Shown: positions 7,404 to 8,230 of the stretch, piece after piece | Numbering within the stretch: position 1 is the first letter of the stretch | Layout: each line of letters begins with the position of its first letter | Position numbers and translations under genes: made by a program | Sequence record: PZ502562.2 | Length of the DNA: 38,725 nt | From: a phage | Direction: 5' to 3' (one strand) | The notes under the pieces: model-generated | Database searches by the model: none | What the model was told of the DNA's origin: nothing | The model's input: only the letters and a program-made list of their open reading frames with translations

Positions 7404-7664
7404 ATGTTTCGACTTCATTTCAACAAAAGCATTAAGAATTTCACAGTTCGCCGTGCTGACCGTTCAATCGTATGTGCGAGCGAGCGCCGAGCTAAGTTAC
7501 CTCCTATTGGTGACACAGTCCCCTTGGCACCGAGCGTCCACATCATTATCACTCGTGGTGACTTCGAGAAAGCAATAGACAAGAAACGTCCGGTTCTTAG
7601 CGTGGCAGTGACCCGCTTCCCGTTCGTCCGTCTGTTACTCAAACGAATCAAGGAGGTGTTCTGA
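7404..7664 (+). CDS. 1.6: Gene 1.6 (86 aa), function unknown
   Basis: [31 protein letters not shown]...[10 protein letters not shown] is nearly identical to T7 gp1.6. Confidence 0.92.
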
Positions 7665-8230
7665 TGATTGTTGTACTTAATGGCCCCGCTGGTTGCGGAA
7701 AGGATACAATAGCTAACCGTATTCTTGAGGTATCCAGTGTATTCAAGAAGGCCGAGATGAAAGCTCCTATGTGGGAAATAGCTAATGCGACTTTGGGTAG
7801 TAACTTCGAGAAGTTCGTAGAGCTATACAACGACAGGGCTACCAAAGAGAAACCTTGCGATATGTTGGGTGGACTTTCACCACGCAACTTCTTTATTCAT
7901 ATCTCTGAGAAGTGGTGTAAGCCTCTATTCGGAGACACTTACTTTGGAGAGCGTATGCTGCAAACAGCCATCTCCAACAAACATCACGAAACCATTCTGT
8001 CAGATGGTGGTTTCTCTGTGGAACTGATGCCAGCACTTGCCGCTGGGGAGACAATTATGTTGGTTCGTTTACATCGTGAGGGTTATACGTTCGATGGAGA
8101 TAGTCGGTCGTACATACACATCGAGCACAAGAACTGCTGGCCTCTGGATGTGAAACTAGAAGATGGTAAAATTGACGAAGCCGTTGAGGGGATTTTAGAT
8201 GCCTACCACACACTACTTAAAGCCGTCTGA
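7664..8230 (+). CDS. P-loop (deoxy)nucleoside monophosphate kinase-like protein at the gene 1.7 locus (188 aa), not homologous to T7 gp1.7
   Basis: The N-terminal Walker A motif VVLNGPAGCGKDT resembles the GxxxxGKDT of phage T4/T5-type dNMP kinases. The start is coupled (ATGA overlap with the 1.6 stop, aggagg Shine-Dalgarno). I see no resemblance to the T7 gp1.7 sequence as I recall it. Confidence 0.7.
   Translation: MIVVLNGPAGCGKDTIANRILEVSSVFKKAEMKAPMWEIANATLGSNFEKFVELYNDRATKEKPCDMLGGLSPRNFFIHISEKWCKPLFGDTYFGERMLQTAISNKHHETILSDGGFSVELMPALAAGETIMLVRLHREGYTFDGDSRSYIHIEHKNCWPLDVKLEDGKIDEAVEGILDAYHTLLKAV

Follow-up and report, generated by a model that had tools for sequence, protein, structure and literature searches.

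The stretch of phage DNA analysed here, 38,725 nucleotides long and called the window below, appears to be a complete T7-like genome (Teseptimavirus) of 38.7 kb with the canonical T7 gene order. Its whole-genome identity to Shigella phage ESh6, Escherichia phage CICC 80001, Salmonella phage C2 and Serratia phage Pila is around 90-92%. Eleven matches to the T7 promoter are found at three or fewer mismatches, where none is expected by chance: five at 334-356, 5539-5561, 5614-5636, 6115-6137 and 8527-8549, and six from 16887 to 38181 that are perfect copies of the class III consensus. This indicates a phage RNA polymerase with T7-type promoter specificity. Two T7 genes are absent from the window, namely gene 1.4 and gene 2.8, with gene 3 (9296) directly following gene 2.5.

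The region considered here starts with a phi1.6-like T7 RNA polymerase class II promoter (TAATACGACTCACTAAAGGAGAC, plus strand, 7376-7398), recognised by its sequence and lying at the place equivalent to that of phi1.6 in T7. Further upstream are a TE-like hairpin (7226-7245) followed by a T-run, a phi1.5-like promoter (7256-7278) and an ORF of 30 aa resembling gene 1.5 (7286-7378; phrog_12128). Downstream of the phi1.6-like promoter four genes follow, all on the plus strand. The first is the orthologue of gene 1.6 (7404-7664, 86 aa; phrog_1777, E 6e-42), whose product is 94% identical in amino acid sequence to T7 gp1.6 and matches the Pfam entry PF06726, 'Bladder cancer-related protein BC10', with an E-value of 8e-21. 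The second, in the slot of gene 1.7, is an ORF of 188 aa (7664-8230) encoding a P-loop protein predicted to be a deoxynucleoside monophosphate (dNMP) kinase of the T4 gp1 / T5 Dnk superfamily. The gene 1.8 orthologue (8199-8333, 44 aa; phrog_1312, E 4e-21; 44% identity to T7 gp1.8) and gene 2, the host RNA polymerase inhibitor (8335-8529; Pfam RNA_pol_inhib, E 2.5e-27; phrog_1307), complete the set, the latter serving as right-hand synteny anchor. An earlier note, made from the letters of the window, had described a single 188-aa ORF between T7-like genes 1.6 and 1.8 whose 3' end overlaps the start of gene 1.8 by 32 nt; the orthology of the flanking products to T7 gp1.6 and gp1.8 bears out the first point and the overlap at 8199-8230 the second.

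The ribosome-binding site AAGGAGG lies at 7650-7656, 5' of the kinase ORF, and the kinase ATG overlaps the stop codon of gene 1.6 in the sequence TGATG. Neither a sigma-70 promoter nor an intrinsic terminator was found within 7100-8700. Given the phi1.6-like promoter and an interval free of terminators, the kinase is therefore expected to be expressed with genes 1.6, 1.8 and 2. The ORF is no chance reading frame but a real gene, since its homologues reach E-values down to 2e-119 and its dN/dS is low: 0.10-0.14 in comparisons with Pila, C2 and Yersinia phage WX1, and 0.064 against a diverged allele of 76% nucleotide identity described below. The gene is thus under purifying selection.

The protein is unrelated in sequence to the T7 gene 1.7 product. 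BLASTP finds no similarity to T7 gp1.7 (best E 28) or to the 179-aa gp1.7 of HZ2R8 (E 4.8). T7 gp1.7 belongs to phrog_2585 and carries a C-terminal Pfam DUF3310 domain; the window kinase matches neither model, T7 gp1.7 both. Tblastn searches with four gp1.7 variants found no gp1.7/DUF3310 homologue anywhere in the window, so that this phage lacks any gp1.7-type kinase. The suspicion that the protein could not be aligned to T7 gp1.7, and that an unrelated, non-orthologous protein occupies the gene 1.7 locus, is thus borne out, gp1.7 being present at that position in more than 200 close relatives. What the two proteins have in common is the genomic slot between 1.6 and 1.8, the class II expression context with translational coupling to gene 1.6, and a presumed metabolic role in phosphorylating dTMP and dGMP, which are given as the gp1.7 substrates in PMC7693777 and PMC11897194. 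Points of difference are the lack of any sequence similarity, the absence of a P-loop from T7 gp1.7 and the metal-independence reported for T7 gp1.7 in PMC7693777.

The nearest characterised relatives lie elsewhere. The window kinase falls in phrog_139, 'deoxynucleoside monophosphate kinase' (E 2.6e-37, profile positions 84-263), which T4 gp1 (E 1.8e-65, positions 83-261) and T5 Dnk (E 1.4e-51, positions 82-266) match over nearly the same span. Its Walker A motif (7682-7708; G7-P-A-G-C-G-K13-D14-T15), read directly from the sequence, is GPAGCGKDT at residues 7-15 and aligns with G8-T16 of T4 gp1 (GVKRSGKDT, within SGVKRSGKDT) and with GEAGSGKDT of T5 Dnk, so that the likeness of this GxxxxGKDT loop to the T4 and T5 dNMP kinases, pointed out previously, holds. 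In an alignment of 37 homologues, N6, P8, G12, K13 and D14 are invariant. Comparison of the profile of these 37 sequences with T4 gp1 by hhalign gives a full-length alignment (probability 92%, E 5.4e-7, 175 columns) which pairs K13 with T4 K14, D14 with D15, T15 with T16, D57-R58 with D67-R68, R74 with R132, D114 with D175, E120 with E181 and R138 with R197, T4 R177 falling on G116. With the exception of D57 and R58, the paired positions are invariant or nearly so among the 37 homologues. Against T5 Dnk the same profile scores a probability of 96.5% (E 9.5e-10) over the N-terminal 51 columns.

Fold comparison agrees in placing the NMP-kinase fold of the window protein closest to the solved T4 enzyme (PDB code 1DEK), with other kinases of small molecules or NMPs next in rank. 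Helicases and ABC ATPases are not among the top fold matches and no non-kinase family gave the best match, which the earlier note would have counted against its reading. PDB sequence searches, with phmmer and with the 37-sequence profile, missed 1DEK and returned only the P-loops of AAA+ proteins and of adenylate or guanylate kinases; the link to T4 gp1 rested on PHROGs, hhalign and fold comparison. Pfam tells a different story from these three: the DNMK family (PF21448), in which T4 gp1 scores 357.9 bits against a gathering threshold of 27.1 bits, has no match to the window protein at E<=1, nor to its homologues P0003 and P0098 at E<=0.01. The assignment to the T4-type dNMP kinases thus stands on phrog_139, the hhalign alignment with T4 gp1 and the fold match to 1DEK, and fails for the Pfam family, from which we conclude that the window kinase belongs to a separate, shorter subfamily without a Pfam model. 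No Pfam or NCBIfam model is assigned to it, only sub-threshold P-loop matches being seen. There is likewise no NCBIfam equivalog match to cellular Tmk or Gmk, guanylate kinase models reaching 12.9 bits, over the P-loop only, against cut-offs of 160-263. That the protein could be an AAA+ ATPase, the annotation it carries in Serratia phage Pila and Yersinia phage WX2, is extremely improbable: the weak matches of residues 3-66 to NVL/Rix7/p97 D-domains (E ~1e-3) and to Pfam AAA_18 (15.7 bits, far under the 29.4-bit cut-off) span the P-loop strand and helix only, and beyond the P-loop no AAA domain above threshold was found in the window kinase. These weak, P-loop-only matches are probably the source of the 'AAA-ATPase' label in Pila.

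The shorter subfamily is widespread, with tblastn finding it in 1433 phage records. Its likeness to T4 gp1 comprises the common PHROG, the GxxxxGKDT P-loop and a full-length profile alignment in which the K/D/T, D-R, R, D..E and presumed LID Arg positions are paired. The two differ in sequence, identity being around 14-15% in structural alignments and 22% over the hhalign columns, and in length, 188 aa in the window against 241 aa in T4, the window kinase being without some 50 residues that T4 gp1 has between helices (T4 ~85-130). According to the note in the T4 record, the substrates of T4 gp1 are dTMP, dGMP and hmdCMP; the last is of no need to a T7-like phage, while action on dTMP and dGMP gives T4 gp1 and T7 gp1.7 two canonical substrates in common. 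T5 Dnk (T5.043) resembles the window kinase in its PHROG, its P-loop and the N-terminal profile alignment, but is 250 aa long and aligns locally over the N-terminal quarter only. This T5 enzyme is reported to be active on all four dNMPs (Mikoulinskaia et al. 2003, a study cited in PMC11447400). A homologue of similar length, the 250-aa P0088, proved not to be T5-like. Proteins on two metagenome contigs (L060, 2001-2576; L061, 996-1556) are matched both by residues 1-77 of the window kinase (36%) and by T4 gp1 (28%, E 3e-10), and could, as bridging sequences, link the short subfamily to the T4 DNMK family.

Taken over the profile, motif and fold comparisons, a dNMP-kinase-like mode of action is well supported for the window protein. 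Its substrates, and even that the acceptor is a dNMP and not some other molecule, we infer. A role as a 5-hmdU DNA kinase, or another base-modification kinase, was rejected by reasoning, there being no companion modification genes in a genome of canonical T7 order.

Distribution was assessed among 50,697 phage records. Homologues of gp1.6 occur in 872 and of gp1.7 in 1253, while the kinase allele at >=95% identity is confined to five: Pila, C2, PSP2-22, WX1 and WX2. When window positions 7000-8600 were used in a megablast search, the middle was covered in just four of the 219 records retrieved; the remainder matched in the flanks only and carry a 'nucleotide kinase' instead. Public assemblies add a few T7-like contigs of 39-40 kb with the arrangement seen in the window, and two contigs (L010 and L011) on which a diverged allele (81% aa, 76% nt) lies between 1.6 and gene 2. 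The exact window kinase protein is absent from the contig index. At the 1.7 locus, then, the kinase allele is rare. Among IMG/VR and JGI/ENA metagenome contigs only distant homologues (<=51%) in non-T7 contexts were found, with no further T7-like carriers and no genome containing both kinases, and among 63 loci there was no co-occurrence of DUF3310 and the P-loop gene. Other alleles at the locus in close relatives are gp1.7 of 196 or 179 aa, versions of 98-105 aa and an ORF of 78 aa containing DUF3310 only.

The nearest proteins beyond Studiervirinae, at 60-67% aa identity over the full length, come from Molineuxvirinae, namely Acadevirus (Proteus phage Pm5460, gp27) and Klebsiella Ulipvirus. 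They are of equal length and share the motifs, and RefSeq and UniRef already list them under the name 'deoxynucleoside monophosphate kinase'. Their genes differ in position, being found not in the 1.6-1.8 slot but in the later part of the DNA-metabolism module, where a metallophosphoesterase is the neighbour on one side and DNA ligase on the other.

Some of the records carrying the kinase have peculiarities of their own. In Yersinia phage vB_YenP_WX1 (OP168920) the product names look shifted or wrong, with 'AAA-ATPase' on a 30-aa ORF, 'DUF2815 family protein' on gp2 and the kinase entered as hypothetical. The Pila sequence contains gene 1.8 but leaves it unannotated. In Salmonella phage PSP2-22 (ON886116, flagged UNVERIFIED_ORG; 1898-4387) the kinase, at 96.8% identity, is preceded by a phrog_2529 ORF and an HNH endonuclease that replace the ligase and 1.6, of which 21 nt of the 3' end are left, and is followed by reverse-strand 'tail tape measure' ORFs; either the genome is rearranged or the assembly is a chimera.

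The boundaries of the exchanged segment can be placed closely. On the left, homology to gp1.7-bearing phages stops at 7666/7667, at the end of a joint (AAGGAGGTGTTCTGATG, plus strand, 7650-7666) consisting of the ribosome-binding site, the gene 1.6 stop and the start codon, which blastn breakpoints and the junction alignment show to be common to every allele. On the right, homology resumes at 8216 with ESh6 and at 8229 with HZ2R8, within the joint CTTAAAGCCGTCTGA (plus strand, 8216-8230). The sequence CTTAAA(G) is native both to the kinase 3' end (in L010, CTTAAAGTCGTTTAA) and, in genomes of the gp1.7 type, to the gene 1.8 5' end (ATGATTCTTAAACCTTCCGAATGG), and the right joint accordingly has the look of a microhomology joint at CTTAAA(G).

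The start signals of gene 1.8 lie inside the 3' end of the kinase (8186-8201, plus strand): the Shine-Dalgarno sequence GAGGGG (8186-8191) is formed by the kinase codons for E-G and the ATG (8199) by those for D-A. At these codons L010 has GAGAAG and GAC GCA, and so neither signal. The new N-terminus of the gene 1.8 product, MPTTHY, is encoded in the kinase overlap. Since the Shine-Dalgarno sequence and ATG lie in the incoming DNA and are absent in L010, the 32-nt overlap would be a consequence of the event, and, since the right joint (8216-8229) falls inside it, part of the scar. The earlier note had raised just this, that the overlap may be the scar of the swap, and both the position of the joint and the origin of the start signals speak for it.

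The diverged allele offers a second view. In L010 (Logan contig DRR771904_30609) the left joint is as in the window, but the stretch 1196-1397, downstream of the kinase, holds further remains. After the kinase stop a second 1.6/1.7 RBS-ATG junction (AGGAGGTGT..ATG; AGGAGGTGTACCAATGG...) leads into the first ~19 codons of gp1.7 (MVCWACIEGDNRYEHTC vs MVCMACLENDDRYPHTC), fused in frame to the gp1.8 core. The resulting ORF of 59 aa, with a precomputed Pfam call of DUF8272, contains gp1.7 residues 1-19 with their CxxC...HxC motif; this part is identical to HZ2R8 gp1.7 at 11 of 19 amino acids (E 4e-7) and to CICC 80001 at 46 of 63 nucleotides. To judge from these identities, the fused codons appear to be a remnant of the displaced gp1.7, left 3' of the kinase. 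Together with the second junction they suggest insertion of the kinase beside gp1.7 followed by loss of the latter.

ESh6 (ON528719), the closest overall relative of the window, has a third allele at the equivalent of window 7664-8230: at 1665-1901 lies the 78-aa DUF3310-only ORF (phrog_236, E 4e-32). The last 15 nt of this ORF are CTTAAAGCCGTCTGA, the sequence with which the P-loop kinase gene ends. This tail suggests that in the ESh6 lineage a DUF3310 gene replaced the kinase and that exchange has also run in the reverse direction. The same 15 nt might be taken to mean that the P-loop kinase was ancestral at the locus in the window clade, DUF3310-type genes having replaced it. We consider this polarity very unlikely, in view of the 1253 phage records with gp1.7 homologues against five with the kinase, the gp1.7 N-terminal remnant kept downstream of the kinase in L010, and the position of the nearest relatives of the kinase outside Studiervirinae. 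The 1.7 locus appears, from its junctions, to be a site of recurrent exchange bounded by the conserved RBS-ATG. In comparison with Pila and C2 the kinase block is the most conserved segment (96.9% identity, flanks 81-96.5%), as would be compatible with spread by recombination.

We infer from the junction sequences the following model of kinase gain and gp1.7 loss. An ancestral Teseptimavirus would have acquired the kinase from a gene pool represented most closely, among sampled phages, by the Molineuxvirinae (Acadevirus/Ulipvirus), the kinase landing directly behind the 1.6 RBS-ATG, upstream of gp1.7. The DUF3310-type gp1.7, now redundant, would then have been deleted, with a different resolution in each of the two lineages. 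In the window lineage the deletion may have extended to the CTTAAA microhomology in gene 1.8, forcing gene 1.8 onto a new Shine-Dalgarno sequence and ATG within the kinase and hence producing the 32-nt overlap.

T7-like phages rebuild their DNA largely from the dNMPs of host DNA. The window enzyme may be pictured as a compact P-loop NMP-kinase fold, distantly homologous to T4 gp1 and T5 Dnk, in which the GPAGCGKDT loop would bind ATP, R135, R138 and R148 (GDSRSY motif) would belong to the LID segment and R58, R74 and D114 (SDGGF..E) to the acceptor site. It would convert dNMPs from degraded host DNA to dNDPs for phage DNA synthesis, as the product of a class II gene whose transcription starts at the phi1.6-like promoter and whose translation is coupled to that of gene 1.6. 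With a T4-type enzyme in the 1.7 slot and gp1.7 lost in both carrier lineages, a functional substitution is the probable explanation; we think it likely, to about the same degree, that the P-loop kinase replaced gp1.7 in a non-orthologous displacement of the phage dNMP kinase.

Loss of gp1.7 need not require a replacement, however, as the protein is dispensable in the laboratory (PMC9712115) and missing from some Studiervirinae (PMC7693777). The P-loop protein could therefore be a kinase with another substrate or role (a small molecule, a nucleotide signal, counter-defence), a cassette at a hot spot where gp1.7 was lost independently and nothing was substituted. The several alleles at the locus in close relatives fit such a picture, as do the phosphomevalonate kinase and AdkA-like folds that score near 1DEK and the want of a Pfam or NCBIfam assignment. 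Set against this are the top profile and fold matches, which are two characterised phage dNMP kinases; the placing of the Molineuxvirinae homologue beside DNA ligase in a DNA-metabolism module; the loss of gp1.7 in both of the independent T7-like carrier lineages, the window clade and L010; and a PADLOC search whose sole match, to an RtcR AAA model, is weak (12.5 bits) and limited to the P-loop region. An unrelated role is unlikely on this evidence, though the non-essential nature of gp1.7 (PMC9712115) leaves it some probability.

A functional displacement of gp1.7 by the P-loop kinase would illustrate how non-orthologous gene displacement occurs in nature, in the phage family that has been studied best, with two unrelated folds doing presumably one job from one translationally coupled slot, and with junctions that record the history. 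The enzyme family and its annotation are already known from RefSeq and UniRef names, and P-loop dNMP kinases are known in other Autographiviridae (PMC5537680). Our literature search found no paper describing displacement of gene 1.7, and the kinase gene goes unmentioned in the Pila genome announcement. The assignment made here sets right the labels 'AAA-ATPase' and 'hypothetical protein', under which the gene appears in Pila, C2, WX1 and WX2. It would also support the usefulness to T7-like phages of a dedicated dTMP/dGMP kinase, despite the laboratory dispensability of gp1.7.

Finally, T7 gp1.7 has been reported as an activator, or a candidate molecular pattern, of the SIR2-STAND defence protein EfAvs5 (PMC11897194). 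It is conceivable, if quite doubtful, that the swap was adaptive immune evasion, removing the trigger gp1.7 while keeping the capacity to convert dNMPs to dNDPs. At the 1.7 locus, alleles seem to have been exchanged for one another on two or more occasions. If immune evasion were the cause, the variety of alleles there (full-length gp1.7, truncated versions, the DUF3310-only ORF and the P-loop kinase) would be the trace left by an arms race over an enzyme that is sensed but useful. The swap also provides a natural control for asking whether a phage can evade gp1.7-sensing defences, Avs5 for one, and still retain the enzymatic function.
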